From contig JABVCE010000034.1 of assembly GCA_014905635.1 (NCBI GenBank), forward strand, positions 1-64,000: a stretch of 64,000 bases of DNA, written 5' to 3'. Below are positions 2,300 to 61,157 of this stretch, piece after piece. A program made the position numbers and the translations under genes. The notes beneath the pieces are model-generated. The model searched no databases and had not been told where the DNA came from. It saw nothing but the letters and a program-made list of their open reading frames with translations. Source of the DNA: Scenedesmus sp. PABB004. Taxonomy: Eukaryota. The stretch's first letter is position 1. Every line of letters starts with the position of its first letter.

Positions 2300-6044
<3,745 letters not shown>

Positions 6045-7217: not shown

Positions 7218-9101
7218 TCACTGCCGGCGGCCGCGCAGCCGCGCGAGCCAGCCGCGCTTCTGCTGCTCCTGCTCCGCGCCGCCGCTGACGCCCAGGGCGC
7301 CCATCTCAACGTCCTTCAGCCCCGCCGCGTCGTCGCCGCCCTCGATCAGCGCCGTCGCGGTGGGGCTGTCGCCGGAGCCCTCCGACGCGGCGTCGCCGCT
7401 GTCGGGCTGCTGCGCGCGGCCGCGCCCGCGCGCCGCAGCGCGCGCCTCGGCGCGCGCGGCCGCCGCCTCGGCCAGCGCCGCGTCCTCGACCGCCAGCCGC
7501 GCCGCCTCGGCGTCGCGCGCCGCCTCGGCGGCCGCGAGCGCGGCCGCGGCCGCGTCGACGCGCGCCGCGGCCGCCGCGGCCGCGGCCGCGTCGCCGCGCG
7601 CGTCCGCGCGCGCCGCGCCGCGCCGCGCGGCCGCGAGCCGCCGCTGCGCGCGCGCCGCGGCGCGGCTCGCGCGCAGCAGCGGGCGCTTGCGCTTGTGGTC
7701 GGCGTCGAAGAGCGAGCCGTTGCGCCACTTGATGATGACGAACGTTATGACGACGGCCCAGTAGAAGCAGTAGAGGATGAGGATGATGGGCGAGGGGCGG
7801 CTCTGGTAGCCAACCACGGCGTGCGCGAGCACGAAAAACTGCTTGCCGTTTGCAAACTCGTCGCTGCAGCACGCGTTGAGGTCGACGACGGGGCGGTGCT
7901 GCCAGGAGAGCTCGTCGGCCCAGGGCGCGTAGGGGCCAAACATGCCGACCTTGCTCAGCAGCTGCGTGCCGAGCGAGACCTGGCCCGCGGCGATGAAGAA
8001 GAGCATGACGGTGGAGATGACAAAAAAGACCTGTGTGGTTGGTTGTGGGTGGGTGTGCGAGTGGGCGGGCGGGTGGGTGGGTGGGCGCGGCGAGAGAGAG
8101 AGAGAGGGAGAGGGAGGGAGACGGGCGCTGCCGCCGCCGGCCGCCGCTGCCGCGCGCCGCGCTGCCGGCGCCGCCGGCGCAGCTGCCGGCACACGCCGCC
8201 CGCGCGCCGCCGCCGCCCGCGCGCCGCGCCGCGCGCGCCTTGAGGTCCTTGATGCTGCGGCCGCCATAGTAGATGGCAAAGCCGACGGCGAGGCCGACGA
8301 TCAGCCCCGCGAGGCACGCGAGCGGCAGCGCGCGGAAGCTCGTGTTGGAGCCCACGCCGGCGAGGAAGATGATCGACTCTATGCCCTCGCGCAGCACCGC
8401 GCTCGCGGCGAGGATGAACACGCTCCACGCGTGCCCCCGCGTCACGCCGTCGTGCCCCGCGCCGGCGCCGCCCCCGGTCGCCTTGTCGCTCGCCTGCGGG
8501 GCGCCGCGGGGCGCGCGTCGGCGCGCTGCCGCGCGCACCGCCGCGCGCGCCGCCGCCCGCGCCGCCACCTGCGCGCCGGCCCCGCGCCGCCGCCGCCGCA
8601 CCGCTTTCGCCGCGCCGTCGAGCTTGCGCATGTACTTTTGCTCCAGCCCGCCGAAGCGCATCATCGCGAAGCCCAGGTACGTGATGAGGATGCAGGCGAG
8701 GTAGGAGATGACGCCCTGGAAGATGAGCTTGCCATTGCCCTGGAAGAGCTTGGTCGCGGCGAGGTAGTAGAGCGCGGCAAACACGCCGCCCGCGATGATG
8801 CTCGCGCCGATGCCCACGCCCGCGCCCCACCAGACTGCGGCGCGCGGCGGCGCGCGCGGCGTCGGCGCGCGCGCGGGCGCGGGCGCGGCGCGGCGCCGCC
8901 CGGGAGCCGCTGCTGCCGTGCAGCGCGGGGCGCGGGGCGGCGCGCGGGGCGCGTGCGGCGGGGCGCACCCTGCTTTTTGAGGCGCGGCGCGGTGCGGTTC
9001 ATGCACTGCAGCAGCACCGCGATGATCACGCTCGCCTCGAGCGTCTCTCGCAGGAAGATAAAGAACGCGACGACGCTGAAGATCTCCTGGAACGCGACCA
9101 T
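7218..9101 (-). CDS. FTR1: High-affinity iron permease, FTR1 family, 4 exons
   Basis: Two RExxE motifs (FLRETLEASV and VLREGIESII), multiple transmembrane segments and an Ala-rich C-terminal tail. ATG at 9101. Confidence 0.93.
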
Positions 9102-9139
9102 CGCGCCGGCCCGCGCGCGCCGCGCCGCGCGCGCGACTG

Positions 9140-13200: not shown

Positions 13201-14479
13201 TTGCGCAGCTTCTGCGCGCCGGGAGGGGGGGGGCAGCGAGAGGGGCAGCGGGAGAGGGGGAGGCGAGTTCAGGCTGCCGGCGCGCCCCTGGCGGCGGGGC
13301 CGGCCGCGCGGCTGTGCAGCAGCGGCGGCGGCGGGCCCAGGGCCCAGCGGGCCCGTGGCCCCCGGGCTTGGATTCATTTGGATACAAAATCAAAACGTTC
13401 GAACCGCACCAGGGCCTCGGAGATGGCGTAGTCAATGAGGTGGTGCGCCGACTCGAGGTGCTTCACCACCACCGCGGCGCACGTGACCTCCTTGAACGCC
13501 CTGCCAGGGCGTTCAAGGCGCGGGCAGAGGGGGAGGGGCAGGGGAGGAGCCAGGGGGGCGTTGGCGCGGCGGGCGCGGCGCGGGCCCGGACCAATCTGCG
13601 CGCCGCGCGCCGCGGCGGCGGGTCCGGGGCGGCCGCGGCGCGCGCCTGTACTGCTGCGCGAGGTCGGGCAGGCCGATCGTGTGGTGGATGGTGTGGTTGG
13701 CGGCAAAGTCGTTGGAGTTGGGCCCGCCTGCGCCGCGGCGCCGCGCGCGCGCGCGGCGGCGGTCACGCCATGCCCGGCCAGGGCGCCGCCGGCAGCGCTG
13801 CCGGGCAGCCGCACCGGCGGCCCCGCCCGCCCTGCCTGGCCCTGGCCCTGGCGCCAGGCCTGGTGCGGTGCCCTCAACCCCCAACCCTAGGGTTGGACCC
13901 TCCTGCTCTCCCCCCCCCCCCCCCTGGGCGTGCCCTCCTCCTCCTGACCCCCTCCTGAGCCCCTACCTGAGATGAAGATGACCGGAAGGTCCTCCGAGTA
14001 GCACCCCGCCACGGCGTTGATGATGGACAGGCCGCCCACGCAGTACGTGAACGCGCACGCGCCCACGCCCTGCGCGCGCGCGCCGCGGCGGCGGGCGCGG
14101 CGGTCGGCGGGCGCGGCGGCGGCGCGCGGCGAGCCGGGGCGCGGGGCAGCGGGGGGCGCGCCTTGCGGCGGCAGAAGCCGTCCGCCGCGTAGCCGGCGTT
14201 CAGCTCGTTGCACGTCCTGCGCGGTGCGGCGGAGAGAGGAAGGGGTCACCGAGCACGCCGCTGCCGCCGCCCGCCCGCCGCCCGCCGTCCGCAGCCTGGT
14301 GCCGGCGGCGCTCCCCGCGCGCACCAGACCGTCTCCAGGCCTTTGTAGTCGACGAACTGGTCCAGCAGGCTCAGGTTGAAGTCACCGGGGACGCCAAACA
14401 GGTGGGTCACGCCGATCTCGACGAGGCGGCCCGCCAGGAAGGTCCCCAGCGAGCACTCGTGGCGCGGCGTCGTCGCCAT
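10238..14479 (-). CDS. PDC: Pyruvate decarboxylase (TPP-dependent), about 18 exons
   Basis: Motifs [89 protein letters not shown] and [10 protein letters not shown]. Confidence 0.96.
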
Positions 14480-21908: not shown

Positions 21909-24233
21909 TCACTCGCTGCGCTCCAGCGTCTGCGCGGCGGCGCGGCGCGGGGGCGCGGGGGCGCGTGAGCGCGCGGCGGCCCGCGCGTCCGCTGGATGGG
22001 CGCCGCCGGCGCTGCGCGCAGCGGCCAGCGCGCCACGGGGCCGCCTGCGCGGCTCGCGCACCTTGCTGTCCATGGCGAGGCCCATGATGTTGAGCCCGTT
22101 GTCGACGTACATGGTGCTGCCCGTCACCGCGCTCGCGAGCGGCGAGACCAGGAACGCGGCGACGTTGCCGACCTCCTGCGCGGGGCGCGCGCGGGGGCGG
22201 CGCGGGGCTGTGGGCGGCGCCCAGCGCGGCAGCACGCCGCAGGCGCGCCGCGCCCCCTCGCTGCGTAATCAGTCGCCCGCCCGCGCGTGTATACGCACCG
22301 TCGCGGCGAGCTCCTTCTGCACCGGCGCGTTGGCGTAGCTGTAGCGGATCATGTCGTCGATGAAGCCGATCGCCTTGGCCGCGCGGCTGCCGAGCGGGCC
22401 CGCGCTGATGGTGTTGACGCGCACCTGCGGCCGCCGGCGGCGCGGCGCGGGCGCGGGCGCGGCGCGCGCGGCGGTCGGGCGCGCGCGCGCGCGCGCGCGG
22501 CGGCAGCGGCGGCGGGGGAGAAAAGGGGGGCGTGCCGCGGCGCGGGCGGGGCGTGCTGCGCACCTGGTACTTGCGGCCCGCCTCGTACGCCAGCACGCGC
22601 GTGTCGCTCTCGAGCGCCTGCCGCGGCGGCGGCGGCGGCGGCGGCGGCGGCGTCCCGTGAGCGCCCGCCCCCGGCCCCGCCGCCGCCGGCTGCACGCCGC
22701 ACGGTGCCCGCGCGGCCCGCGCCGCCGCCAGCGCCGCGCTGGCCCGCGTGCCGCGCCGCTGGCTCACCGCCTTGGCGCTGGACATGCCGCCGCCGTAGCC
22801 GGGGATGACGTCTTCGCTCGCGATGTAGGTGAGGCTGATCGCGGCGCCGCCGGGGTTCATGATGGGGCCGAAGCGCTGCATCATGCTCACGAACGAGTAC
22901 GACGACGCCGACAGCGCGGCGAGGTAGCCCTTGCGGCTCGTCTCGAGCAGCGGCTTCACGACCTCGGGGCCGTTGGCGAGGCTGTGCACCTGCGCGGCGC
23001 CGCGGCGGGAGCGGGCAGCGAGCGGGGCGGCGCGGGCGGCGTGGGTGGCAGCGCGTGGCGCCCGGCCGGCCGCGGCGCAGTGCCCCCGGCCGCCCCGGGG
23101 CCGCGCGGCCCCGGCGGCGCACCACGACGTCGATGTTGCCGATGTCGGCCTTCACGCGCGCCGCGACCTCGCTGACCGTGTACTGCCCCGCGCCCGCGTA
23201 GCGCTTGTTGGTGCGCACCTGGCGGCAGCGGCGCGGCGGGCGCGGCGGCGCGCGGGCGGGCGGGCGGGCGGGCCGCGTAGGTGGTCGGGACGCCGCCGCA
23301 GCGCGCCCGGGCCCGCCCGCGCCGCCGCGCTGCCGCGGCCGCCACCCTGCGCGCCGCCGCCGTCGCCGCCGCCGCCCCTGTACGCCGTGCGCCGCGCCCG
23401 TGCCCGCGCCCGCGCCCGCCGCGACCCGGCCGCCGCGCACCTCCTCTGGCACGTCCTCGGGCACGTCAAACACGGCGTCCATGGGGTAGATGTGCGTGAA
23501 GTCGAGCATGCCGCCGTTGGAGAGCTTGCGCGACTCGTCAAACTTGCCGCGGCGGAAGCTCGTCTCAAAGATGTTCAGCGCCGGCACCTGCGGCGAGGGA
23601 GAGCGCGGCGGCGGGCGCGGCGGCGGTTGCCAACTGCCCGGCGCGGCGCGCGGCGGTCGGCGAGCCCCCGCGCACGCAGGCTGCCGCCGGCGGCGAGCCG
23701 CGCCGGCCGAGCTGCGGGCGAGCCCGGGCCGGCCGAGCTGCGGGCGAGCCCGAGCCGGCGCGGCGTGGCCGCCACGCCGCGCGGCGCGGTGCGGCGCGCG
23801 AGCAGCGGCAGCGGCGCCGCGCGCACCCAGACGCCGAGCGAAATCTCGGCGCCCGCCTCCGCCAGGGCCTTGGCGATGGCCCAGCCGAAGCCCTGCGCGG
23901 GGGGCGGCCAATGGGGCGTGGGCGGGCGCCCGGCGCGGCGCGCGGCGCGGCGGGGGGCGGGCGCGCGCCTGATCGTCGGCAACGCCCGCGATGAAGGCCT
24001 TCTTGCCTGCGGCCCGATGGCGCGGGGATTAGGGCGCCCCGCCCGGCCGCCAACGCGGCGCACCGGAAGGCAATTGGCGCACCCGTGAGGTCGATGGGCA
24101 GGCCGGTGCCGTGCGCGGCAGCGGCCACGCCCCGCCGCGCCACCCGCGCGCCGCCGGGGCGCAGCCCGGGCGCCACGCGCGCCACGCGGGCCACGGGAAC
24201 GCCGCGCAGGGTCTGCTGGGCCGCGAGCGCCAT
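21909..24233 (-). CDS. FABI: Plastid enoyl-ACP reductase (NADH), 10 exons
   Basis: Transit peptide followed by [67 protein letters not shown] and YVDNG. Confidence 0.96.
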
Positions 24234-24464: not shown

Positions 24465-27400
24465 ATGCTGCTCGGCCGCGCCTGCCGGGGCGTGCGGCAG
24501 CACGCCCCCCGCGCGCCGCCGGCGCGCGGGCGCGGCCGCTCGACGGCCGCGCGCCCGCGCCATGTCGCCGCCAGCGCCGCCGGGCCCGCGGACGCCGCCG
24601 GCGAGCCGGGCGCCGGCGGCGAGCCGCCGCTCGTGCGCAGCAGCAGCCGCGGCGCCGGCGCGGCGCGGGCGGCCCGCGCGCGCGGCGCCGCGCCCCTAGT
24701 GACGCCCCACAAGGCGCTGCTGGAGATGGGCATCGTGGCGCGGGACGACAGCGGGTGCGCCGGGCACGCGGGCGGGCGGCGGCAGCGGCCGCCGCCCGTG
24801 TCCAGCGCCGCCGCGCCGCGCCCCCACGCCCGCCGCCGCGCCGCCGCCAGGGCGCCGTTCGTGGACGTGTCGTGCCTGGGGCGCGGCGCGCCGGCGTGGT
24901 ACGCGGTCGGGGTGCTCGAGGGCAAGGAGGAGCGCTTCCTGGAGCAGCTGGGCAAGGCCTGCGCGGCGCGGGGCTACGACTTTGACCCCGCCGCGCGCTA
25001 CGCGCCGCCGCCGCCGGGCGCGGGCGCGGGCGCGCCCGAGGCGGTCGCCGCGGACGCGCTGCTCGCGGCGCACGACGTCGTCGCGTGGCTGCCGCGCAAG
25101 ACGATGATGGTGCGGCGCGGCGCGGCGCGGCGCGGCGCGGCGCGGCGCGGCGGGCGTCGAGCAGCGCGCGCACGGTGACGCCGCTGACCCCCTCCCCCTC
25201 AAACCTTGGCGCGCCGACCGCAGGTGTACAGCCCCAACACTGACCGCCTCTCCGAGCGCTCCGTCGGCTACGCGCGCGGCAGCGGCGGCGCGTGGCTGCT
25301 GCTGCACGCGGCGCTCGACCCGCTGCTGGTGGACGTGGTGGGCGAGACGTACGCGTTCATGGCGTGGCGCCATGAGCAGGACGTGCCCGCGCGCCTGCTC
25401 GACCAGGCGGGGCTGCTGCCGCCGGGAGAGGACGTCAACGCGGTGCGCCCCGCGGCGCGCGGCGCGCGGCGGCGCGGCGCCCGGCCACGCGGCGCCCGGC
25501 CGCGCGCGCGCTGGCGGCGCCCCGACCGCGCCCGCGCCCGCGCCCGCGCCCACGCCCGCGCCCGCGCGCGTCAGGTGTACAAGCTGCCGGTGCCGTGCAC
25601 GCCGGAGGTGCTCGCCGCGCTGTCGGCGTGGCAGCACGCGGAGGAGGCGGAGGACGAGGAGGCAAAGCGCGTCGAGTACTACGGCCTTGGCGGCGGCACC
25701 ACGTTTGGCGAGGTGCGACGCGCCGCAGCAGCGCGCCAGCGGGCCAGCGGGCGCCAGCGGGCCGCGCGGGTCAGCGGGGGCTCTGCTAACCCAGCGGGCG
25801 GCTGCGCCGGCGCGGCGGCGGGGGCTCCGCCGCCCAGCGGGGCCTGACGGCGCCGGCGCGCTGCTGCGGCAGGTGGAGCGCTACGACAAGCGCAAGGGCA
25901 ACATGGAGCGGGACGAGGCCGGGAATCAGATCTACCGCCAGGGCTATGCGGGGAGCTACAACAACCCGGGCCGCTGGAGCGCCGGCGGCGACGCCGGCAG
26001 CGACGCCGGCGCCGGGCGCGGGCGCGGCTGGGGGCGCAGCCGCGACGGCGCCGGCCGCGGGCGCGGCCAGCAGCAGCGGTGGGAGCAGCGGGGGGAGGGC
26101 GAGGAGCGCTGGCAGCAGCAGGAGCGGTGGCAGGAGGAGCAGTGGCAGCCCGCGCCGGCCGGCGGCGGCTGGGCGGGCGCCGGCGCCGCCGCGGGCGCGC
26201 TCGGCAGCTGGGACGACGCCGGCGCCGACGAGGCCGGCGCGGGCGCGGGCGGCCGCGGCGACGGCGTGCGGCAGCAGCAGATGGAGTGGATGGCCGAGCG
26301 CGGCAGCGGCCGCTACAATGACGGCGACGGCGACCTGGAGGGCGCGGCGGGCGGCCGCGAGGCCAGCTTTGCGGGCGCCGGCGGCCGCGGCGGCTTTGGC
26401 GGCCGCGACGACGGCGTGCGGCAGCGCCAGATGGCGTGGATGGAGGAGCGCGGCAGCGGCCGCTACAGCGACGGCGACGGCGGCGACGGCGGCAGCGACG
26501 ACCCCATGGATGTCGACTGGACGCCGAGGAAGGCGCGCGGCGGCGCCAACAACGCGGCCGGCCGCCGCGCGGGGCAGCAGCCGCAGCAGCCGCAGCAGCC
26601 GCAGCAGCCGCAGCAGCGGCCGCGCGCGCCGCCGGGCGACGCGGCGCGCGGCGGGCGCGGCGTCGGCCAGGCGGCTTTTGGCGGCCGCGACGACGGCGTG
26701 CGGCAGCGCCAGATGGAGTGGATGGAGGAGCACGGCAGCGGGCGCTACAGCGACGGCGACCGCGACGCCCCAGGCGCGCCCGGCCCGGCCGCGCCCGGCG
26801 GCGGCAGCGCCGGCAGCGCCGGCGTTGGCGGCCGCGACGACGGCGTGCGGCAGCGCCAGATGGCGTGGATGGCCGAGCTCGGCAGCGGGCGCTACGGCGA
26901 CAGCGCTGACAGCCTGGGCAGCCTCGACTTCAGCCAGGGCGGCGGCTTCCCCGGCGGCGCCGGCGCCGGCGGCGACAAGGGCAGCCTGCTGTCGGACGTG
27001 GCCGCCGCGTTTGAGGGCCTGGACGCCTGGCCGCGCCTGGCCGGCCCCGGCAGCCCCGCTGGCAGCGGCGCGCGCAACAACGCGGGCGGCCCCGGCCGCG
27101 CGTCGTACATGGACGAGGGCGGCGCGGGCTGGGCCGACAGCGCGCCCGCGGGCGGCAGCGTCGACCTGGAGGGCCCCGCCGCCGCGGCGCAGCTGCGCGA
27201 CGCCTGGGCGGCCGACGGCGGCGGCGACGCGCTCGACGGCGTGCTGGGGCCGGGCGGGCTGGGCCTCAGCCTCGACATGGACGCGCCGCCGCCGCCGCCG
27301 CCGGGCGCCGCGGGGGCGGGCGGCGGCGAGGCCGCGCCGGCGGCGCCCAAGCCCAAGGCGCGCAGCGGCGCCCGGCGCAAGACGGGCAGCGCCGCGCCCG

Positions 27401-27636
27401 GCGGCGACGCGGCGGCGCCCAAGGCCGCCGCAGGGCGGCGCGCGCGCAAGGCCACCGGCGGCCGCGCCGCGGCCGGCGCCAAGGGCGCGGCCGGCGCCGA
27501 CGCCGACGGCGACGCGCCCGTCGTGCCCGGCTTCCCCGCCGCGGACGGGGACGAGGGCTACGAGCCGGGCTGGGAGAACGCGCTGCTGGACGACGGCAAC
27601 GACCGTGTTGGCCTGGACGACGTGCTCGGCCGGTGA
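24465..27636 (+). CDS. Organelle-targeted protein with a NusG/NGN-like domain and a long repeat-containing disordered C-terminus
   Basis: Transit-like N-terminus. WYAVGVLEGKEERF, AWLPRK, GAWLLLH and LPVPCTPEVL resemble the NGN pattern. The large last exon (about 25873-27636) carries four GGRDDGVRQRQMxWMxExGSGRY repeats. Confidence 0.55.
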
Positions 27637-27666
27637 CGCGTGCTCGGCCGGTGACGCGTGCTCGGC
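27621..27666. repeat. 18-nt tandem repeat (about 2.5 copies) spanning the stop codon
   Basis: CGTGCTCGGCCGGTGACG twice, plus a partial third copy. Confidence 0.9.
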
Positions 27667-27938: not shown

Positions 27939-28727
27939 ATGCAGCCGCCACGCCGGTCGCACCAAAGGCAGCGTCATCATCTTCTCGTGCTGCTCCTAGC
28001 TGGGCAGGCGGCGGCAGCGGCGGCACCGGGGGCGGCAGCAGCGGCGGCACCGGCGGCAGCAGCAGTGCCGCCGCTGCGGCCTGCCCCGCGAGCAGCAGCA
28101 GCAGCGGCGCGCACGTGTGCCGACGGCTCGCCCGCGGCGCAGTGCGGCGGTGCGGAGGCGGCGGCGGCGCGGTCGACCTGCTCGCACGTGCGGTGCGCGC
28201 GCGGCACGGCGTGCAGCATGCTGTCGTGCGGCGGGCGCTGCAAGCCGCTGTGCGTGCGCGTGGTGCCGGCCGACGCCGCCGGCTGCCGGCCGGCACACCC
28301 GTGCGCCACGATGCTGTGCGCGCCGGGCACGGTCTGCGCCGTCACGAGCGTCGGTGCGGATGGGGCCTGCACCGCGGAGTGCCTGCGCCGGGATGACGGC
28401 AGCGGCGCCGGCTGCCTGGGCGGCACCGGCGTGCGGTGCTGGCGCAACCCGTGCGACGGCAAGGTCTGCCCGCGCGGCCGGACGTGCGAGCCCGAGTATT
28501 GCGGCGGCTGCTTTGCCGCCTGCGTGCTGGATCAGCCCTGCGCAGACGGGCGGCGTCGGCGGCCGTGCCTGGGCACTGCCGACCACTGCGCTGTCGCGGG
28601 CGCGTGGCCGACGCCGGGCACGGTCTGCCTGCCGGACCAGTGCCGCGACTGCGCCGCGGTGGGCGTGGGGCCCTGCGCGCCGGGGTGGTACGCGAGCGCC
28701 GACACCGCGTCGTGCCAACCGGGCTGA
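27939..28727 (+). CDS. Cysteine-rich, probably secreted protein (intronless)
   Basis: Hydrophobic stretch LLVLLLAG, then repeated C-x4-C-x2-G-x2-C modules and VRCWRNPC..CP..C..YCGGC. TGTAA at 28774-28778 downstream. Confidence 0.65.
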   Translation: MQPPRRSHQRQRHHLLVLLLAGQAAAAAAPGAAAAAAPAAAAVPPLRPAPRAAAAAARTCADGSPAAQCGGAEAAAARSTCSHVRCARGTACSMLSCGGRCKPLCVRVVPADAAGCRPAHPCATMLCAPGTVCAVTSVGADGACTAECLRRDDGSGAGCLGGTGVRCWRNPCDGKVCPRGRTCEPEYCGGCFAACVLDQPCADGRRRRPCLGTADHCAVAGAWPTPGTVCLPDQCRDCAAVGVGPCAPGWYASADTASCQPG

Positions 28728-29270: not shown

Positions 29271-32200
29271 TCATGCGTTGTCGTTGTCGTCGTCGCCATC
29301 GTCGCCCAGGCGCGCGACCTTGAGGGCCGGCAGCTGGCTCAGCGCGCGGCCGAGGCCGTCCCAGCGCATGAGCGTGGCACAGCCGGACGCGTCGAGCCAC
29401 TGCAGCGCGACCAGGCCGGAGCAGGGCTCCGGCAGCGCCCGCAGCGCCGCGCAGCGCGCGAGGGAGAGCCCCCGCAGGCTGCGCAGCGACGTGCCGACCG
29501 ACGCCGGCAGCGCCTCCAGGCGCACGCAGCCTGCGAGGTCCAGCAGCCACAGCCCATCCAGCTGGCCGAGCAGCTCGGGCAGCTCCACCAGCTCCGCGCA
29601 GCCCGCGAGCGACAGGGAGCGCAGCGACGTCAGCGTGCATAGGGGCGCGGGCAGCCGCTGCATGCCCACGCTGCCGAGCCTGAGTCGGCGCAGCGCCGGC
29701 AGGTTGCGCGGCGAGAGCCAGCCCATCATGTGCTGCGGCTGCAGGTCGTGCAGCACGAGCGCGCGCAGCCGCGACGGCGCCTCAAAGTGGGGCCGCCGCT
29801 CGCCGAGGTGCGCGGCCACGACCTCCAGCTCCAGCAGGCTCGTGCCGCCGCCCAGCAGGGCCGCGAGGTCGGCCACGCCCTGCGCACGCAGGACGCGCAA
29901 GTGCTTGGGCCGCGGCAGCCGCCCGAGGGGCTCCGGCAGTGCCAGCGCGTCCACGCCCACGCAGCGGCCCTGTCGGCGCGGCGGCGCGGCGGGCGGGGGC
30001 GCTGAGGGGCCGCCAGGCCCCGGGGCCAGCCGCGCGGCGCGGGCGGCGGCGCGCCGCGGCGCCCCGCCCCGCGCGGGCGCGCGCGTGCGCGGCCCACCTT
30101 GCCGCCGTCGCGGTGCGCGCCCGCCGCCAGCCGCGCCGCGTCGCCCGGGCGCCGCAGCACGAGGCGCACCTCCTGCCCGCCCGGCAACGCGAGGCGCGCG
30201 GCGAGGCCACGCAGCACGTCGTGCACGCCCACCGCGGCGACGCGGCCGCAGACCTGCCCCGCCTCTGCGCCGAGCGTCTCGCCGCGCCGGATGAGGCGCA
30301 ACGCCTCGAGCGCCGCCAGGTGCCGCGCGCCGTGCACCAGCTCGAGCTCGCCCCACGGCGTCTGGTTGCAGCGCGGCGCGCACGCAATGTCCAGCCACGC
30401 GGCGCGCAGCGGCGGCTCCAGCCGCTCGACCGCAAACGCCAGCCCCGCCGCGAGCGCGTCGGCGGCCGCCGCGCCCCGGCGGCGCCGCCCAGCACGCCGC
30501 CGCGCGGCAGGCGGCGCAGCAGCGCGCCCGGGTCGGCCTTGGCCTTGGCCTCCGCCGCCAGCGCCGCGCTGAGCAGCACCAGCGCGAGGGGGAGGCCCTC
30601 CGCAAAGTCCAGCGCGGCGTCCGCCTGCGCGGCGCTCAGCGCGACCCGGTCAGCGCCGCCACCGGTCAGCACCGCGCGCGCCGCTGGGCGCAGCAGCGGA
30701 CGCAGCAGCTGGCGGTGCACCGCGCCCGGCGGCAGCGCCGGCAGGCCCGGCGGCGCTGCGCTGCGGCTGGTGATCAGCAGCCGGCTCCTGCGAGCGGCAG
30801 CGGCAGCGGCGTCGGGCGCGCCGGTCAGCCGTGCATGGGGCGCGGGGAGCGCCGCAGCTGCCCAACGTGGCGCCGCCGCCCGCGCACACCCGGGCGCCAG
30901 CACGCGGCCCATGTTGGCGGGCAGCAGCTGCGCCGCCGCCGCCTCGGTGCCGGGCTGCTCGGGCAGGTTGTCCAGCACAAGCAGCAGCGGGCCACGCCGC
31001 CGCGCCGCGGCGAGCGCCTCCGCCAGCCACGCGGCGCCCTCGTCCGCGCTGCGCGGCGCGCCGCGGCCGCCCACGCCCTGCGCGAGCTTGCGCAGCAGCA
31101 CGCCCTGCGCCGCGCGCAGCGGCGCTGCGCGGTCGCCAGGCGCAAACTCGGCGTGCAGGCCCACCACGTGCACGCCGCCGGGGAAGGCACCGGCCTGCTG
31201 CAGGCGCCGCGCGAGCTGCTGCGCCAGCTCCGACTTGCCGACGCCGGGCAGGCCGTGCAGCAGCACGCCGCGCACGCCCTTGCCCGCGTCGGCCGTCAGG
31301 CGAGCCGTCAGGTCGTGGGCGAGGCCCTCAATGCCGTCTGCAGGCGGCGGCGGGCGGGGGAGGCAGGGAGGCAGGCGTGCCGGCACCTCAACGCGCGCCC
31401 GGGTCCGAGGCATCGGCGCCGGCCGCGCGGCCGCCCGGCCGCGCCCCACCCGCGCCTCGCGCGCGCACCCAGGGTGTGCAGCGGGCGGGCGCGCTGCAGC
31501 GGGGGCAGCTGATACAGCAGGGCCTCGTGGCGTTCGAGTGCGTCGAGCTCAGAGACCGACGCCACGAGCGCCGGCAGCGCGCGCCGCAGCTCGGCCACGC
31601 TCGCGGCCTTGGCGGCCAGCTCGGGCGCGCTCAGCGAGGCAGCGGGGAAGCTGGGCAGGCGGGCGAGCGGGCGGGCGGGGCGAGGTCAGCGGGCGCCGCG
31701 CGCCGCGCACGCGCCCGAGCCGGCCCGGCCCGCTGGGGTCCTCGGGTCGGTCGCCGCAGCGGCCACCCACCGCAGCGCCAGCGCCCCGCCCTGGACGATG
31801 AGGGCCTCGGCCGCCGCCGTCGCCACGAGGCGCGCGAGGCGCGACACGCGCGCGCGCTCGCCGTCGCACTGCTGCCCGCGGCCGAGCATCAGCCCCGGCC
31901 ACGCGGAGTTGAAGTCTCCGAGGAGGGCCCGGACCTCGCGCAGCAGCGCCAGGCCCTGCTCGGGCACGGGCGCAAAGGCCGACCACTGCTCCAGCGCGTA
32001 CGCCAGCAGCGCCCATGCCGGCGCGATGCTGTCGAGGCTGCAGCTCAGCGCGAGCTGGCGCGCGGCGCGCGTGCCCAGCGCGTGCCACGCGCGCGCCTCG
32101 GCGCCGCAGTCCTTGCCCTGCGGCGGGCGCCGGCCGGCGCGCGCGCGCGGCGCGGGCTCGTGGGCGTGTCCCGCCGGCGGCGCTCCGCCGCCGCGGCGCG

Positions 32201-32853
32201 TGGCGGCGGCGGGCGACGAGCGCGCTGCGCCGCCCGGGCGCACCTCGGGCTCGGCGTCGCGGAAGAGCCGCGCCGCGCGCAGCAGCGCCGACACGTAGCT
32301 GTGCGCCTCGCCGTCGTCGTCGGGCCGCGGCGGGGCGCTGCTGACGAGCTCGAGCGCGGCCCCGCCGCGCCGCCGGCCGGGCTGGCTGCGAGGCCGGTGA
32401 GCGCCTGCGGCGGCGGCGGCGGCAGACGTGGAGTGCCGCCGCACGGCGCCACTGTGTGTGCACGCTGTGGCAGCCTTGCCGGGCCCTGGCCAGGACCCAT
32501 GGGCTCACCTTGTCAAACAGCGCCAGCGCGCCGCCGCCCAGCGCGGCGCCGGCGCAGCGCTCGTGCTCCATCAGGCCGGCCAGCAGGCTCAGCAGCGCGT
32601 GGGCTGGGGAACTGTGCACCACCGCCCTCAGCTGCAGCTCCTGAGCCGGCGCCGCCGCCTCCTCCTCGCCCAACCGGGAGCTCGGCGGCGCGGCGGCCTT
32701 GGCGCGGCGGGCGCGCGGGTGCTGCTCCGGCGCCGCGTCCAGCTGCTGCTGCGCCTGCTCAGCCTGCTTGGCCGCCGCGCGGGCAGCCAGGGCGAGGCTG
32801 GCGTCGCGGGCCGCAGCCTCGCGGCCCCTGAGCGAGGAGCTGGCACACCCCAT
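29271..32853 (-). CDS. NB-ARC-LRR (NLR-like STAND) protein with an MGC N-terminus; two apparent frameshifts
   Basis: P-loop GLPGVGKS, Walker B LLLVLDN, RNBS-B SRLLITSR, GLPLAL, an MHD-like VHD and LRRs (LxxLxLxGCxxLxxLP). Frame breaks at about 32360 and about 30475. Confidence 0.85.
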
Positions 32854-33151: not shown

Positions 33152-34034
33152 TCACCGCAGGCCCATCTGGCCCTCGCCGCCGCCGTCGCCGCCGCTCCTT
33201 GCGCCACCGCCCGACCCGGTGAGCCAGGGCACCAGCGCGCTCAGCTTGCTCAGCCGCGCAGCCGGCGGGCGCGCCGCCGCGGGAGGGGCGCCGGCCGCGT
33301 GCGCCGCCCACGGCGGCCGCGCCAGCGCCCGCTGCTCCTGCACCTGCTGTGCCTGCGCCGCGGCCCGCTGCTGCAGCCGCTCCATCAGCTGCTGCATCGC
33401 CACGTCGCTGCTGTCCGGCGGCGCGGCGTGCCGCAGGTCGATGGTCTGCTGCACGCCGCCCGGCTGCAGGCCCAGCGCGCCGCCCGCCGCGAGCGGACCG
33501 CCCGCCGCCGGAACAGGCGGCTGCGCCTGCCCGTACGCCTGCTGTTGCTGCTGCTGCTGCTGCTGTTGCTGCAGGAGCCATTGCGCGTACGGCTGCTGCT
33601 GCTGCGGCTGCTGCTGCTGCGGCTGCGGCTGCGGCTGCGGCTGCTGCTGCGGCTGCTGCTGCTGCTGCTGCTGCTGCTGCAGCTGCTGCTGCTGCAGCTG
33701 CTGATGCTGCTGCCACCACGTCGGCGCCCGCGGCAGGTCGCTGTGCATTCCCGGCTGCGAGTGCAAGGGCTGCTGCCATGCCCCGCCCGCCGGCGCAGCC
33801 GCGCTCTGGCCGGCGGCCTGCTGCGGCCGCGCGTCCCACTTTCGCTTGCTCCTGGTGGCAGCGCCGCCCCCCGCCGGCTCGCCGGGGTCGCTGCCCTGCT
33901 GGGCCCCCGCCCCCTGGGACTCTGCTTTGCCCGCTGCCAGCCGCGCCTGCGGCCGCGCCGGCCGCCCGCCAGGCGGCGCGGCGAGCTTGAAGCTGATCCC
34001 CGGCCGCCCGCCGTCAGCCTCTGGCGCAGCCGGC

Positions 34035-34085
<51 letters not shown>

Positions 34086-35125
34086 GGCTGCTGCTGCGGC
34101 TGCTGCTGCTGCTGCTCCTGCTGCTGCTGCGGCGGCGGCTGCTGCTGCTGCAGCTCGTGCTGCGCCTTGGCCGACGACTGCTCAGTCGGCGGCTGCACGG
34201 CAGCTGTGCGCTCCGCGGACGCTGATGGCGCAGCGGCGGCGGCCTGCAGCGCGATCGCCTGCCGCACTGCGGCCTGCACCACCGCCGCCTGCCGCTCCGC
34301 GCCCTGCTGCGCCGCGGCCTGCTGCGCCGCGGCCTGCTGCGCCGCGGCCTGCTGCGCCGCGGCCTGCATCAGAGCGATTCGCTGCGCCGCCGCCTGCTGC
34401 GCCGTCTCTGCGACCACTGGTCGCGGCGCTGCCGCCTGCTGCGCCGCCGGCTCCTTGGCTGACCGCGTCGTCGGCTTCCGCTGCAGCGCCTGCTTCTGCG
34501 CCTGCTTCGCCTGCTGCTGCTGCTGTTTCTGCCGCGACTGCTGCTGCGCCTTCTGGCCAGCCGCAGCCGCGGAGCGCGGCGCCGCGGCGGCGGCCGCGGA
34601 CGGGCTGCGCGCTGCTGCCCCTGCGCGCGCGGCTGGGGCAGCGCGCACCGCGTCTGGCAGGCGCTGCACCTGCTGGTTGACCTGCCGTAGCTGCTGCAGC
34701 CACGGCTGCTCGCCGCACACGCCGGCCGCCAGGTCAGCGAGCAGGCCAAAGCCCTCTGCCGCCGCCTGCGCGGCCGCCGCCAGGCCGCTGTCGGCCTCGC
34801 GCGCCGGTCGCTTCGCCGGGCTGCCATCGCCGTCGCCGCCGCCGCCGCCGTCGCCGTCGCGGGCGCGCTTGCGGCCGTCCCCCGCCGCGACGCCGCGCAG
34901 GCCGGCGAGCAGCGTGCCGAGCGCGCCCTGCAGGCCCGCCAGGCGCGCCTCCGCCTCCGCCAGCCGCTGGTCGCGCACCAGCAGCTCGCCGTAGAGCCGC
35001 TCGATCTCGGCGTCGTCCAGCGCCTGGACGAGCTCCACCGCGGCGGCGCCCGGCTGCCGCTGCTGCCCCGGCGCGAGCGGCGCCAGCGCCGTCACAGGAG
35101 GCGGCGGCGGTGGTGGCGCCGCCAT
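33152..35125 (-). CDS. Glutamine/alanine-rich low-complexity protein with a coiled coil and a bipartite NLS-like motif
   Basis: Long open ORF from ATG 35125 containing EIERLYGELLVRDQRLAEAEARL, RKRAR...PAKRP and polyQ tracts. Confidence 0.65.
33539..34150. repeat. CAG/CTG trinucleotide tracts encoding polyQ
   Basis: (CTG)n arrays at about 33539-33707 and about 34036-34150. Confidence 0.9.
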
Positions 35126-35552
35126 GGCCCCTTCAGCAGCAGCGCATGCTCTGTGGCGGGCCGGCCGGCCGAGCGGAGGCGCGGCGGGGACGGCGGGCGA
35201 GCAGAGGCCGCGCGCGTTGGCGGTTGCAGCCGTCGGCGGCGGGCGCGGATCAGCCACGGCGCTGCTGGCTGGCGCCGCGACGGGGCGACGGGTCGCCGCA
35301 GCGGGGCCGGGGACAGCGGGGTCCTGCGGTCGCCGCGGTTCGAAGGCGGCGTAGCAGCGGACGCGCGCCGCGCCAGCGCACACTCCCGTGGCGTCGCTCT
35401 CAGCGCACATTATTTCCGGACCGCTCGCAGCCCCCGCGCGGCCGGCGGTCGAAGCAGCCGCCGGCAAGCAGACCGCTGCTCGCCAGCAGCGAGCGCCGCC
35501 GGGCGCGGCGGCGAGCATCCATCAGCATTCGCCTGCAACGCCCCCTCTGCCC

Positions 35553-37956: not shown

Positions 37957-40478
37957 ATGGACGAGCTCAACGCGCACCAGTTCTGGGGCGTCAGCCCCTT
38001 CCTGGACCTCCTGGGCGCGGCGGACGCCGCTGGAGTCGAGCGCTCGGCCGGCGGCGCCCCGGACGAGCCGCTGGCGCTGCTGCAGGCGCGGCAGCGGCGC
38101 GCCGGCGCCGCGCCGCGCGGCCGCGGCGGCGCCACGCCGCTGCCCCGCCCGCCGCCGGCGGCGCAGGTGTGCCCCTACGACTGCCGGCACACGCTGGCGA
38201 CGCTCGCAGCGGCCTGCGAGGCCGCAGCAGGCGCCCGCGGCGCGGCGCCGCGGCGCGTGGAGCTGGTGGTCTATGAGGAGCAGCCAGAGGTCCTCGCGCG
38301 GCACATGCTGCTGCTGGGCGTGCTGTTCGAGCCCGCGCTGAGCCAGCGCGAGCGCGCGGAGGTGTTCCTGGAGCTGCACGGCAACGCGCTGCTGCGCCAG
38401 CGCACCGCCGACTACCTGGGTGCGCGCACGCGCAGCAGCGCCGGCGCGCCGCGCGCGGGGCGCGGAGGCCCGCGCGCAGAGCCGGCCGCCCCCGCGCCGC
38501 GCGCAGCCGCCGCGAGCAGGCGCCTGGAGGCGGCGGTCGCCGCGCTGCCGCGCTGCGCGCCGCCCGGCGCGGCGGCGCAGGCGGGCGAGGAGGAGGGCGG
38601 CCTCGGCGTGCTGGGGCTGTTCGACCTGAGCCAGCTGCGCTACGCGGAGCGCGACGCGCTGCTGGAGGCGTTCCAGCGCTATCGCGCAAAGGTCGGACCG
38701 CGTGCGCGGCGGCGGCATGCGCAGCGCGCCGACCCGCGCGGGCCAACGCGCGCGCGCGCGTGCTGCTGCGCCGCAGGCGGGCTTTGACATGGCGCGCGCG
38801 TGGGACGACCGCTGCCGCAAGTGGTACGGCGATCGGTACGACGTGCGGGCCAACATGGTACGCGCGAGCGCGGGGCGGGCGTCGGCGCCAGCGCAGCCGG
38901 CGGCGGCGGCCGGCGCAGCCGCCGACCGCCGCCGCCGCGCGGCGCCGCGCGGCGCAGGTGGACTGGGACTACCACATGCGCCTCGCGCCGCGCGGCACGC
39001 CCTTCATCGACGCCGCGGCCGGCAGCATCGTTCACTTCTCCCACTTCAGGCGCGCCGCGCCCCGCGGCCCCGGCACTGACACTGACAACACCGAGCCAGC
39101 GGCACGGCGGCGGCGCTGCAGCAGCGCGGGCGCGCGCTGCGGCAGGGCGCCGGGCGCTGACGCCGCGCCGCGCGCAGGCACTGGCGGCTGACGGGCGTCG
39201 CGCACGAGGTGCGCGGCGCGGCGTACGCCGCGCCAAACACGAGCCTGCTGAGCACCGCGCTGGCGCGCACGCGGGAGTTCAAGGACAGGTGCGGCAAGGG
39301 ACGTCAGGCGCGGCAGCGTGCTGCGCGCCGCCGCGGGCGGGCTGCGACTGGGCGCCCGGCCGGCCGACGCGCGCAAGCTGCCGCCGCCCTGCCCCTGCCC
39401 CTGCCCCCGCGCCGCGCCCTGCCGCGCGCGCGCTGCCGCCCGGCGCCAGGCAGCTGCGCGACGTCGGGCGCAGCGTGTCGGCGTTCTCCTACTGGGGCGA
39501 CATCACGGCGGGGCCGTTCCACGCGTTTGGCACCGTGCCCGGCCCCGCCCCGACGCCGCGCTGTTCGCGGTGTCCAACCAGGCCTTCACGCACACCGCGG
39601 TGGACGTGGCGGAGCACAACCTCATGGTGCGGCCCCGCGCCGCGCCGCGCCGCGCGTGGCCACGCGCCGGCGCCGCCGGTGGCGACACCAGGGCGGGCCG
39701 GCGCCGTCCGGCGCGGCGCGTGCCACGCCGCCGGCGCGCTGACACCCCGCCACCGCCGCCGCCGCTGGCGGCGCCGCAGGCCTTCATGCGCCAGCTGCGC
39801 GCCGGCTGCGGCGGGGCTGAGGAGGGCGGCAGCGCCGCAGCCGGCGGCGCGCACAGGGCCAACGCCGCGCGCGGGCCCACCAGCATGGAGCGCCTGGCGG
39901 AGCCGGCCGAGCACGGCCCGCAGGACGGCGCGCAGCCGCAGCCGCCGCCGCCGGCGCCGGCGCAGTCGGGGGAGCAGCAGGAGCAGCAGCAGGCGCGGGG
40001 GACGCATGCGGCAGCGGCGGCGGCAGAGCTGGAGCAGGTCGCCGCGGCCGAGGCGGCCGCCACGGCGGCCGCGGTGTCGCGCCTGCTCGGCGCCGCGCGC
40101 GTGCGGCTGCTCTGCGGCGACCTGCGCAAGAGCCTCACGGGGCGCGCGGGGCACGCGGGGCGCTTTGGCGCCGCGACGCTCGGGCACCGCCACGTGCACC
40201 TTTTGGGCGGTGAGCACGGCCTCGCGCCGCTGCTCGCGCGCGGCGCGCCGCTGCTGGTCGAGTCGGCGGCCAACCTGGTGCAGCTCAACGACGAGCAGGC
40301 CGCCGCGTTCGAGGCGCGCGTGGTCGAGCTCGCGCGCGGCGGCGGGCTCGCGCGCCACCCCGCGCTGGGCTGCGACGGCGCCGCGCCGGCGGGCGCCGCG
40401 GGCGGGCGCTGGCGGCTGCCGCCCGGCCATTTTGCGCTGGCGGCGGCGGCGGCGGCAGCGGAGGGCGAGCCGGCGTGA
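37957..40478 (+). CDS. DNAAF3: Axonemal dynein assembly factor 3 (PF22); apparent frameshift at about 39545
   Basis: FWGVSPFLDL, EVLARHMLLL, FLELHGNALL, WDDRCRKWYGDRYD, DWDYHMRL, YWGDITAGPF, VAEHNL and LLVESA. Confidence 0.88.
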
Positions 40479-48041: not shown

Positions 48042-50205
48042 ATGGCGACGTGCTGGAGCGCGTCCGCGCAGCGCGCGCCGGCGGCGGGCCACGCCCGGCG
48101 CGCCGCGGCTGCGCCACACACGCGAGGCGCCTTGCTGGTGCGCGGCGGGCTCCGGCGGGCGCGCATGCGCGCTCGGGGCGCGCCCGGACGCCGTGCCGAG
48201 CTCCCGCGCCCGGCGCCGCGGTGGCGCGCCACCCTGCCGGTCGGCAGCAGCCAGTTCCCCGGCAGGGCACCGCGGCCTGCCCGCGCCCGCAGCCGCGCCG
48301 CGGGCGGGCCCCCGCGCCGCATGGCCGCCGGGGGCGCCCAATTCCGCGCCACCGCCGCCGCCGCGGCCCCGCCGCCGCCCGCGCGCGCCGGACGCCGACG
48401 CTGCTGCCGCGCGCGCCGCCGCCGCCGCCGCCCGCAGGCGCCGCGCGCGTACAAGCGCAACAACCAGCAGCAGCGCGGCCCCGGTTTCGTCGACATGCCG
48501 CCGCTGCCGCCGCTGCCGCCGCTGGACCCGGCCGACGCGCCCGGCGGCGCGCCGCCGGCGCCGCCGCGCCAGGCGCCCGCGGCCAACCCCTACGGCGAGC
48601 CGGCGACCTACCCCGGCCAGGCGCCGGGGCAGGGCGGCGGCGGCGGCGGGGGCTACCTGCCCGGCGGCGGCGGCGGCGGCTACGGCGGCGGCGGGCGGCG
48701 CCAGCAGCAGCAGGGCGGCGGCGGCGGCGGCGGCTACGCGGACCCCGTGTGGGGCGCGCCGCCGCCGAGCCAGGGCGGCGGCGGCTGGGGCTACCGCGGC
48801 GGCAACGGCCGCGGCGGCGGCGGCGGCGCGGGGCGCGGCTTCCAGGGCTTTGACGACGCGACGACCGACATGCTGCTCCAGGCGCGCGCGCCGCGCGCCG
48901 CGCGCTGTGGGCCCTCCCCGCCCCTCTCCCTCCCTCTCCCTGACTCGCGCGCACGGAGCCAGCACGCTGCACGCGCGTGCGCGGTGCGGGCCCTCACACC
49001 TGCCCGCGCGGCGGCCTCGCAGGACCTCGAGTCGTACAGCGGGTACGGCTTTGGGCCCGGCACCGACCGCTGGATGGACGACGTGGTGGAGGAGGTGGTG
49101 GAGGACACGTCGCCCAAGTACGTGGGCGGCAAGCGCGTGCTGGTCAACCGCGAGATAGAGTGAGCGAGGCCCTCGTGTGGGCGGCGCCGGGGAGGGCAGC
49201 GGGCAGCGCGCGGGTGCAGCGCCGTGTGGGCGGCGCCGCTTGGGCAGCGCGCGGCGGCGCGCCGTGGCGGCGGGGTCGGCGCGCTGACGAAACGCCGCGC
49301 GACGCGCGTCGCCCCGGCGCAGGGCGGCGACGGTGCGCGTGCAGGACGCGTCCAAGGCCGAGATCGGGGTCATGTCCTTTGAGGACGCGCGCGCGGCGGC
49401 GATGAAGGCCGACGCGGGTGCGTTTGCGCCCGCCTGCCCGGCGCGGACCGCGGCGCGCGGCGCGGCGCAGGGCGCGGCGCCGCGGCGCAGGGCGCGCGGC
49501 GCGTGCAGCGCGGGCGCGACCCAGCGAGCCCGCGTGAGGCCGCGCCACGGTGCCGCGGCGCGCGCAGACGTCGTGCTCATCAACGAGGGCGCCGACCCGC
49601 CGGTCGTGCGGCTCATCGCGTTTGGGAAGTACAAGTTTGAGGTCGAGCGCGCGGCAAAGGCCAAGCAGAAGACGAGCAAGGGGTGCGCGCGCGACCGGGG
49701 CCCGCCGCGCCGCCGCCGCCGGCTCCTCGCCGCCGCGCCGCTGCTGCTCCCGCTGCTGCCGGCCCCGCGCCGCCGCCGACGCCGCGCGCGCCATTCCGCA
49801 CCGCGCCCCTGTCCGCGGGCGCAGCACCGAGACCAAGGAGGTGCGGCTGCGCCCCGTGACTGAGGCGCACGACTATGAGGTCAAGGTCAAGGCCGCGCGC
49901 GGCTTCCTGGCCAAGGGCTCCAAGGTGAAGCTCACGATGTCGTTCAGCGGGCGGGAGATGCGGTTCAAGGACCAGGGCAAGGAGATGATGCTGGTGCGGG
50001 CGGCGCGGGCAGCAGGGCGCGTGCGGGCAGGGGGCGGTGCGCGCACGCGGGCAGAGGGCAGAGCGCCGCCCGCCGCCGCCGCGCGCCCCCGTGTCGCGCC
50101 GCCGCGCAGAAGCTGATTGAGGACCTGAGCGCGACGAGCAAGATGGACGCGCCGCTGAGCCTGCGGCCAGCCACGTTCAGCGTCACGCTCTCGCCGCTCA
50201 AGTAG
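48042..50205 (+). CDS. infC: Organellar translation initiation factor IF-3 with a Gly-rich N-terminal extension
   Basis: VLVNREI, DVVLINEGADPPVVRL..GKYKFE and KEVRLRP..HDYEVKVK..FL.KGSKVK...GRE. Confidence 0.9.

Positions 50206-61117: not shown

Positions 61118-61157
<40 letters not shown>

Follow-up and report, generated by a model that had tools for sequence, protein, structure and literature searches.

Work on how receptors of the nucleotide-binding leucine-rich repeat type (NLRs) in plants execute their response rests on three types of N-terminal domain, namely coiled-coil (CC), RPW8, and TIR. The acylation sites of Arabidopsis RPS5, PML5, and their relatives are required for membrane localisation and cell death according to the available text of one report (PMC11467418), and the available portion of another describes SUMM2 as held at the plasma membrane by N-myristoylation, which is common among CC-type NLRs (CNLs) (PMC13043302). 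For the chlorophytes, the accessible parts of two reports describe TIR-NB-LRR genes in Chromochloris zofingiensis (PMC7145615) and NLRs together with more NLR-like domain combinations in several Scenedesmaceae, recognised with Pfam models for TIR, RPW8, CC, NB-ARC, NACHT, and repeats (PMC13315243). The available text of a review credits chlorophytes with a few NLR genes and states, with reference to Feng et al. 2024, that algal NLRs set off immune responses in Nicotiana benthamiana (PMC12856790). A macroevolutionary study of N-terminal domains sampled two streptophyte algae, and its available part does not mention chlorophytes (PMC11218826; compare PMC10952240); a study of Ulva deals with APAF1_C/WD40 genes (PMC8891106). 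Here we describe a gene of NLR type on the minus strand (32853-29271) of a 64,000-nucleotide stretch of DNA from the chlorophyte Scenedesmus sp. PABB004 (contig JABVCE010000034.1, positions 1 to 64,000; hereafter the window), in which an N-terminal domain matching no known family is predicted to precede NB-ARC and leucine-rich repeat (LRR) domains.

The locus is a real gene split by introns, as its codon statistics and homologs indicate, and it encodes an NLR-type protein with NB-ARC and LRR domains, the join between exons 6 and 7 being a predicted one. The modelled product of ∼950 residues is encoded by seven exons separated by six introns, and the order along it is an MGCASS start, a helical N-terminal region of ∼340 residues, the NB-ARC, and a short LRR domain. 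An earlier reading of this DNA made from its letters alone (the sequence-only reading) had listed MGCASS, GLPGVGKS, LLLVLDN, LLITSR, GLPLAL, VHD, and LRRs as the motif set of such a gene, and the whole set is found on the minus strand where it had been placed. A region ahead of the NB-ARC is likewise present, but it had been taken to comprise roughly 400 residues, whereas after splicing it measures ∼340, with the P-loop at residue 366. The accompanying statement that NLRs are sparsely described in chlorophytes is up to date in part only, since such genes are now reported from Chromochloris and several Scenedesmaceae (PMC7145615, PMC13315243). Chlorophyte NLRs have thus been reported already, and what may be new here is the predicted joining of an N-terminal domain of no known family to an NB-ARC-LRR. 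We lean, short of confidence, toward regarding the locus as a nuclear seven-exon chlorophyte NLR gene that combines an acylation signal, a lineage-specific helical N-terminal domain, an NB-ARC, and an LRR, and that works in the manner proposed below.

The closest described proteins are two from Tetradesmus obliquus, A0A383W0R7 (P0050 in our set; a UniRef entry of 643 residues named 'NB-ARC domain-containing protein') and OEZ86_010865 (P0052; hypothetical protein), in which the same helical N-terminal domain is followed by the same NB-ARC; no published function was found for either. They differ from the window gene in that their database models lack an LRR. A0A383W0R7 ends after the NB-ARC, and OEZ86_010865 is missing the middle of the N-terminal domain and has a C-terminal third of unrelated sequence that was probably fused to it by a gene-model error. 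The N-acylated CNLs (RPS5, PML5, other PML/ANL proteins, and SUMM2) resemble the window gene in having MG with a nearby Cys, a helical N-terminal domain, an NB-ARC, and an LRR. In contrast to them, the window N-terminal domain, with its ∼340 residues, exceeds a CC by far in length and shows no CC match in sequence or in fold, the latter as judged from a middling-confidence model without exon 4; moreover, the NB-ARC profile of the family places a TIR-NLR and RPW8-type NLRs (RNLs) above CNLs, and the acylation is here a predicted one. The TIR-NB-LRR genes of Chromochloris zofingiensis and the NLR-like genes of Scenedesmaceae also combine NB-ARC and LRR in Sphaeropleales-type chlorophytes; in the available parts of the two reports (PMC7145615, PMC13315243) genes are classed by Pfam TIR, CC, and RPW8, none of which the window N-terminal domain matches, and an overlap with their gene lists is possible. 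Roq1, RNLs of the ADR1/NRG1 type, and APAF-1 share the NB-ARC and, by profile, rank first among the solved proteins related to the window family (E 6e-18, 4e-12 to 4e-9, and 2e-11, respectively), but the window gene has no TIR, RPW8, or CARD in front of it and its LRR is much shorter. The MLKL_N, HeLo, and RPW8 bundles are comparable to the window N-terminal domain as all-helical N-terminal modules ahead of an oligomerising switch, but no match to it was found by hidden Markov model, by PDB sequence, or, with a middling-confidence model without exon 4, by structure.

The GC content is 74–83% per 2-kb bin across the whole window (1-64000), and all six frames contain stop-free stretches hundreds of codons long, so that open frames alone are no proof of coding. 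The exon signal used was therefore the GC content at codon position 3 minus that at position 2 (GC3-GC2), with the caveat that an exon often gives it in its antisense frame as well. In the NLR locus this signal sits in the modelled frame of each exon and drops in each intron (Table 1), and all six introns run GT..AG with a GTG donor and a CAG acceptor. A local blastp comparison gave a colinear alignment (E 4e-57; 38% identity over 435 residues) that pairs positions 164-580 of the spliced product with positions 89-509 of A0A383W0R7; it spans the junctions between exons 3 and 4, 4 and 5, and 5 and 6 and thereby provides independent support for these three. The junction at intron 3 rebuilds Arg-Phe, as in the M-R-F of A0A383W0R7, within a gap-free stretch of the alignment, and at the site of intron 5 both A0A383W0R7 and OEZ86_010865 continue from the Gly to SRVLFTSR without insertion. 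When exon 4 was queried alone its match to A0A383W0R7 was not significant. Toward the 5′ end, another in-frame acceptor of intron 1 would put the start of exon 2 at 32348 instead of 32381, and intron 2 may be either spliced or retained; its retention would insert 42 residues rich in Pro, Gly, and Arg, a stretch that is disordered in the structural model (residues 46-84, predicted local distance difference test score (pLDDT) <50). The gene is judged to be beyond chance on the strength of the exon-tracking periodicity, the match to A0A383W0R7, and the LRR matches of exon 7. Of the two frameshifts that had been proposed for it, one is a true break, which lies within exon 6, and the other is an intron, the pieces of the gene being joined by six introns.

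The NB-ARC of NLRs is defined by the ordered motifs Walker A, Walker B, RNBS-B with the sensor TSR or TTR, GLPL, and an MHD-type motif. All five are present in the window gene in the canonical order, and the additional WLDIAC motif presumably resembles the FLDIACF motif of TIR-NLRs. Exon 5 matches Pfam AAA_16 (2e-9), and NB-ARC only below its cut-off (0.006). The identity of the module is clearer in its relatives, in that PF00931 scores 63 bits in A0A383W0R7 (positions 2-247/248) and 44.5 bits in OEZ86_010865, and A0A383W0R7 matches APAF-1, Roq1, and an RNL among PDB sequences. With a family profile of 15 rows that include window exons 5 and 6, all 21 PDB matches at E ≤ 0.001 are NB-ARC proteins, in the order Roq1 (6.4e-18), an RNL (3.9e-12), APAF-1 (2.4e-11), and ADR1 (4.1e-9), with NRC-type CNLs from 5e-7; in fold, too, the NB-ARC modules of Roq1, RNLs of the ADR1/NRG1 type, and APAF-1 rank first for the Tetradesmus homolog. 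In exon 7 the four canonical repeats are flanked by degenerate ones and accompanied by an acidic tail. Pfam LRR_8 (3.1e-7) and LRR_R13L1-DRL21 (8.9e-7) are above their cut-offs there, and LRR_14 (4.3e-10, 39.3 bits) falls just under its cut-off of 40 bits. The assignment to an NLR-type gene with N-terminal domain, NB-ARC, and LRR in a eukaryotic green-algal context, as first read from the sequence, is thus upheld by homologs, profile, and neighbouring genes.

When the 289-residue NB region was searched exhaustively with HMMER, only 49 proteins were returned at E ≤ 0.001, four of them at ≤1e-10 and none at ≤1e-30. PF00931 is present at E ≤ 1e-4 in 33 of the 40 relatives scanned for it, the scan covering all but P0017, P0018, P0020, P0026, P0031, P0032, P0036, P0042, and P0045. 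The best matches are environmental and Tetradesmus fragments of 120–330 residues and ordinary composition with 40–45% identity to exon 5 (best E 3.8e-13). In seven of nine aligned fragments the sequence stops at the very Gly that closes exon 5, as if the open reading frame callers had met an intron, which suggests that the position of intron 5 is old and conserved in the family. The long matches are NB-ARC-TPR or BTAD-NB-ARC-TPR proteins, architectures known from bacteria. Fragment P0014 belongs to the same 90% cluster as A0A383W0R7, and the N-terminal region of A0A383W0R7 used as query retrieves one protein, OEZ86_010865 (E 4e-24); FPGGV, LLV(I/L)DN(V/L)PE, SR(L/V)L(I/F)TSR, GLPLAL, AWLD, and (V/L)HD are family motifs that A0A383W0R7 and OEZ86_010865 have in common with the window gene. 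By these similarities the family also has members in Tetradesmus obliquus and among environmental sequences of green algae. Word-indexed protein searches with the NB region of the window gene, and with P0014 against longer proteins, gave no match at E ≤ 0.001, probably as a result of swamping by Ala-rich words; the Ala content of the window product is 23%, and its Tetradesmus obliquus relatives are of ordinary composition. In metagenome contigs, a search for the NB-ARC exon by the bare P-loop pattern alone picked out 79 loci with 24–59% identity over short stretches, which appear to be bacterial NB-ARC genes, and none of the 79 encodes the N-terminal domain. OEZ86_010865 carries a precomputed Pfam tag, PF25972.1; our own Pfam scan at E ≤ 10 did not return PF25972.

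The N-terminal domain is conserved between the two algae, with exon 3 showing 40% identity to residues 89-194 of A0A383W0R7 (E 1e-18) and an invariant signature W..ALG / Y-A-x-x-Q-W-S / N-x-A-W-P. The helices quoted in the sequence-only reading all fall within this exon. The structural models of the domain show an up-down helical array, with eight helices predicted across residues 33-260 of A0A383W0R7 (pLDDT 60-75); they have pLDDT values of 60-80 and were built from alignments of three sequences over the region, and the model for the window itself is a read-through of exon 2, intron 2, and exon 3 that does not include exon 4 (pLDDT 59.5). The domain had been described as non-TIR and possibly a four-helix-bundle executioner. 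Its non-TIR and all-helical character stands, as no TIR family is found by Pfam in exons 1-4, A0A383W0R7, or OEZ86_010865 and the predicted models are helical. The executioner reading, on the other hand, has so far gained no support: the proposed comparison with MLKL, HeLo, RPW8, and CC domains yielded no Pfam, PDB-sequence, or Foldseek match, and the only lead in that direction is a language-model score of 0.83. Specifically, Pfam returned no MLKL, RPW8, HeLo, or CC family for exons 1-4 at E ≤ 1 or for the three N-terminal domain sequences at E ≤ 10, a PDB sequence search with the N-terminal domain profile returned only rows at chance level (FOXP3 at 0.044), Foldseek with the window model gave 0 matches at E ≤ 0.001, and no MLKL, CC, RPW8, or HeLo chain is among the best 50 matches listed by VIA-align against 48,161 chains. 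The absent Foldseek and VIA-align matches are no evidence against kinship with these families. In a language-model look-up with residues 62-272 of A0A383W0R7, fungal hypothetical proteins come first (0.86), followed by a Mucoromycota cluster, 36% of whose members have PF22215 MLKL_N (0.83), and by a plant cluster for which this proportion is 25% (0.78); all of these scores are below the trust line of 0.9 and are not calibrated for parts of proteins. The ESM Atlas gave bacterial hypothetical proteins for exon 3, with an uninformative best score of 0.82. Pattern searches for the domain gave 192 matches in metagenome contigs and 112 in prokaryote genome contigs, none of which was confirmed. No description of the domain was found in the literature searched, and the NLR tables of PMC13315243 and Feng et al. 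2024 may already list the family.

The residues M1 G2 C3 A4 S5 S6 at the start of the product satisfy the MGXXXS/T consensus for myristoylation given in the available text of PMC11467418, and a Cys is adjacent to Gly2. The ATG at 32853 is preceded by an in-frame stop five codons upstream, and there is no other ATG on the minus strand between 33166 and 32853 (313 nt). MGCASS is thus probably an acylation signal. The Gly2/Cys3 signature pointed out in the sequence-only reading conforms to the published rule, and the Tetradesmus paralog OEZ86_010865 begins MGGLCC. Anchoring to a membrane would be plausible by analogy with the acylated plant receptors.

On the gene structure, the homology, the NB-ARC and LRR identity, the conserved N-terminal domain, and the acylation motif can be laid a mode of action borrowed from plant NLRs, which supplies the lipidation, the membrane residence, the cycle of sensing and oligomerisation, and the output. 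Myristoylation of Gly2 and palmitoylation of Cys3 would hold the resting receptor on the membrane, and the LRR would keep the NB-ARC ADP-bound and off so long as neither a ligand nor a modified host target has been sensed. Nucleotide exchange would then lead to oligomerisation through the NB-ARC, and the clustered helical N-terminal domains would give an output at the membrane, most likely a defence or cell-death signal, produced either through an effect of their own on the bilayer or through a recruited partner.

Several points speak against this scheme. The start codon and the splice junctions are predicted, and expression of the gene is presumed. Exons 1 and 2, which include the acylation motif, have no similarity to A0A383W0R7 or OEZ86_010865, and A0A383W0R7 as annotated begins MSSKQQ and not MG. 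Searched with PF00931, the window's own sequence reaches 16.3–16.8 bits, below the cut-off of 23.5 and over the P-loop only, the queries being single exons or intron-containing frames of this Ala-rich protein; its best direct PDB match is APAF-1 at E 0.029, and the NB-ARC membership thus rests on the family and not on the window sequence alone. The LRR is short, with ∼4 clear repeats. The N-terminal domain is conserved, helical, and assigned to no known family, fold, or function, and an immune or cell-death role for the family would follow from analogy with plant NLRs. Finally, the frame break that interrupts the NB-ARC may be a real lesion.

In the case of a real lesion the locus would be a pseudogene whose product ends out of frame after GLPLAL, without the winged-helix (VHD) part and the LRR. 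The coding sequence of the best model, at 2849 nt, is indeed not divisible by three, and no GT..AG intron removes the break without losing a helix conserved in A0A383W0R7 and P0043. The break falls, however, in a variable, Gly/Ala-coding loop of pure GC with a G4 run at 30477-30474, a typical site of one-base assembly error. On its 5′ side (to ∼30497) exon 6 aligns with A0A383W0R7 up to residue 509, and on its 3′ side (from ∼30460) it matches A0A383W0R7 residues 521-614 (E 7e-6) and P0043 (E 1e-8), so that the gap between the two alignments amounts to 11 residues of A0A383W0R7. The periodicity moves from one frame to another at the break without a dip and is as strong past it (0.36-0.46) as before, WLDIAC, VHD, and the LRR repeats downstream are intact and align to relatives, and this is the only lesion in ∼2.85 kb, which makes decay of the gene unlikely. 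A candidate intron that would restore the frame (GT at 30495; AG ending at 30425 or 30416; 71 or 80 nt) was rejected because it would delete the ADALAAGLAFAVE helix aligned in A0A383W0R7 and P0043 and because its acceptor is not CAG and it is shorter than the other six introns. A different error would affect the N-terminus alone: exon 1 might not be the true first coding exon, in which case MGCASS would not be the N-terminus and the lipidation signal would be accidental. The missing similarity of exons 1 and 2 to the Tetradesmus proteins and the two possible acceptors at their junction are in keeping with such an error, yet within exons 2 and 3 the conserved core is preceded by no ATG in frame, and an upstream start is therefore required. 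Coding periodicity is strong in exon 1, and its GTGAGC donor has the phase required. Its ATG comes after an in-frame stop, with no earlier ATG for 313 nt, and OEZ86_010865 likewise starts with MG and Cys-Cys and has a long low-complexity leader. We regard a misplaced start as distinctly unlikely.

The remaining alternatives concern what the protein does. The N-terminal domain could be an alpha-solenoid of HEAT/ARM-like type or another adaptor bundle, so that the receptor would signal by recruiting partners and not by acting on the membrane. The eight successive helices predicted for the N-terminal region of A0A383W0R7 would suit such a structure; on the other side stand the modest pLDDT of models drawn from three-sequence alignments, the lack of an ARM or HEAT Pfam match for the domain, and language-model neighbours that point instead to clusters bearing MLKL_N, and we consider an adaptor possible but doubtful. 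The domain may alternatively be a very divergent membrane-acting bundle of MLKL/HeLo/RPW8 type, pre-anchored by dual acylation, which seems a quite improbable identification. The protein might also be a switch of the STAND type (signal transduction ATPases with numerous domains) that operates outside pathogen defence, for instance in stress-induced or developmental cell death or in regulation, its likeness to plant NLRs reflecting no more than an NB-ARC inherited from a common ancestor. In favour of this, the family profile also matches APAF-1 and AfsR, a bacterial regulator; more distantly related are regulators of bacteria with NB-ARC-TPR or BTAD-NB-ARC-TPR architecture; and the gene is a solitary one, surrounded by housekeeping genes, of which the 64-kb window contains no paralog. 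Against a non-defence role, the plant immune NLR Roq1 (6e-18) ranks above APAF-1 (2e-11), the C-terminal sensor is a Cys-containing LRR as in plant NLRs, and immune responses are reported to follow when algal NLRs are expressed in Nicotiana benthamiana (available text of PMC12856790, citing Feng 2024 and Chia 2024); we hold such a role to be improbable. The membrane-held NLR outlined above is the reading that we retain.

If the N-terminal domain of this receptor signals or kills, it would be a fourth kind of NLR output module, and the alga would offer a single-celled system for the role of NLRs where no tissue needs protecting. Should the domain merely dock a partner, it would be a pointer to an unknown algal signalling pathway. 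Were it a divergent bundle of the MLKL/HeLo/RPW8 type, chlorophytes would have their own 'executioner' class of NLRs, and the pairing of a pore-forming or membrane-disrupting helical bundle with a plant-type NB-ARC-LRR would either predate the split between chlorophytes and streptophytes or have arisen twice. Surveys based on Pfam would score the family only as 'NB-ARC(-LRR)'; the corrected model and the signature W..ALG, YAxxQWS, NxAWP, FPGGV, LLVxDNxPE, AWLD provide a handle for finding it in other algal genomes.

Table 1. Coordinates of the modelled NLR gene, its motifs, and neighbouring loci in the window.
Feature	Position	Strand	Description
Exon 1	32509..32853	-	115 codons; ATG 32853-32851; low-complexity, Ala/Gln/Glu-rich after MGCASS; donor GTGAGC; periodicity 0.24-0.44
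MGCASS	32853-32836	-	Exon 1; candidate N-myristoylation (Gly2) and S-acylation (Cys3)
Intron 1	32382..32508	-	127 nt, GT..AG; periodicity drop
Exon 2	32244..32381	-	46 codons; one predicted helix (model residues 22-43, pLDDT ∼50-60) before the conserved core
Intron 2	32118..32243	-	126 nt, in frame, stop-free; periodicity 0.12-0.14
Exon 3	31771..32117	-	Conserved core of N-terminal domain; four predicted helices, pLDDT 70-80
Intron 3	31651..31770	-	120 nt, GT..AG; codon split after second base
Exon 4	31469..31650	-	∼60 codons; last helices of N-terminal domain and linker to NB-ARC; colinear with A0A383W0R7 201-272
Intron 4	31338..31468	-	131 nt, GT..AG; frame change and periodicity dip; junction within colinear alignment
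Exon 5	30890..31337	-	First half of NB-ARC: P-loop, FPGGVH, Walker B
GLPGVGKS	31254-31231	-	Exon 5; P-loop, Walker A GxxxxGK[ST]
FPGGVH	31185-31168	-	Exon 5
LLLVLDN	30987-30967	-	Exon 5; Walker B
Intron 5	30788..30889	-	102 nt, in frame, GT..AG
Exon 6	30098..30787	-	Remainder of NB-ARC; holds the single frame break
LLITSR	30780-30763	-	Exon 6
GLPLAL	30597-30580	-	Exon 6
Frame break	30470..30495	-	One-base shift needed: gain of 1 or loss of 2
WLDIAC	30397-30380	-	Exon 6, between GLPLAL and VHD
VHD (GVHDVL)	30229-30212	-	Exon 6
Intron 6	29970..30097	-	128 nt, GT..AG, phase 0; periodicity dip
Exon 7	29271..29969	-	LRR domain; TGA stop 29273-29271; periodicity 0.34-0.54
LRR repeats	29633-29358	-	Exon 7; four canonical LxxLxLxxCxxLxxLP, 24-25 residues each
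Neighbour loci	3022-6035, 7644-9128, 10253-14473, 22041-23575, 54126-55658	-	Exon-sized segments matching Pfam
Neighbour loci	49029-49993, 58512-59808, 60521-61791, 38218-40370	+	Exon-sized segments matching Pfam

The families at the neighbouring loci are SHMT, FTR1 iron permease, TPP enzyme, enoyl-ACP reductase, IF3, VHS, metallophosphoesterase, Exo_endo_phos, and DUF4470/DUF4471, and all of these genes consist of several short exons, which indicates compact eukaryotic nuclear DNA. A tblastn search of the 64-kb window with eight exon pieces (exon 6 being split at the break) found no second copy of the NLR gene; the window holds no NLR cluster, its neighbours being ordinary multi-exon genes, and no tRNA gene was found in it. 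Directly upstream on the same strand lies a gene at 33152-35521 (minus strand) with long poly-Gln and Pro-Gln runs encoded by CAG repeats. Its frame stops ∼300 nt ahead of the NLR start, which confines the promoter and 5′ untranslated region of the NLR gene to the gap between them.

Two further frames lie beyond the 3′ end of the NLR gene on the plus strand. At 28101-28727 a Cys-rich frame with many CxxC-like spacings has no Pfam match and no codon-position signal on that strand, and it may not be coding. At 25108-27639 a long coding-like frame contains ∼5 copies of a repeat of 25–30 residues of the type DDGVRQRQMAWMEERGSGRYSDGD, spaced by Gly/Ala-rich stretches, for which no Pfam family was matched. 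Among sequencing runs looked up for the locus, no RNA run was listed, and two metagenome DNA runs (X1 and X2) share 5–6% of words with it, mostly through short GC-rich cross-matches. Each of them also contains one short contig identical to the locus, covering 30891-31090 in X1 and 29286-29527 in X2, with the frame break and all junctions lying outside both, which suggests that the organism or a near-identical strain is present in these samples at very low depth.

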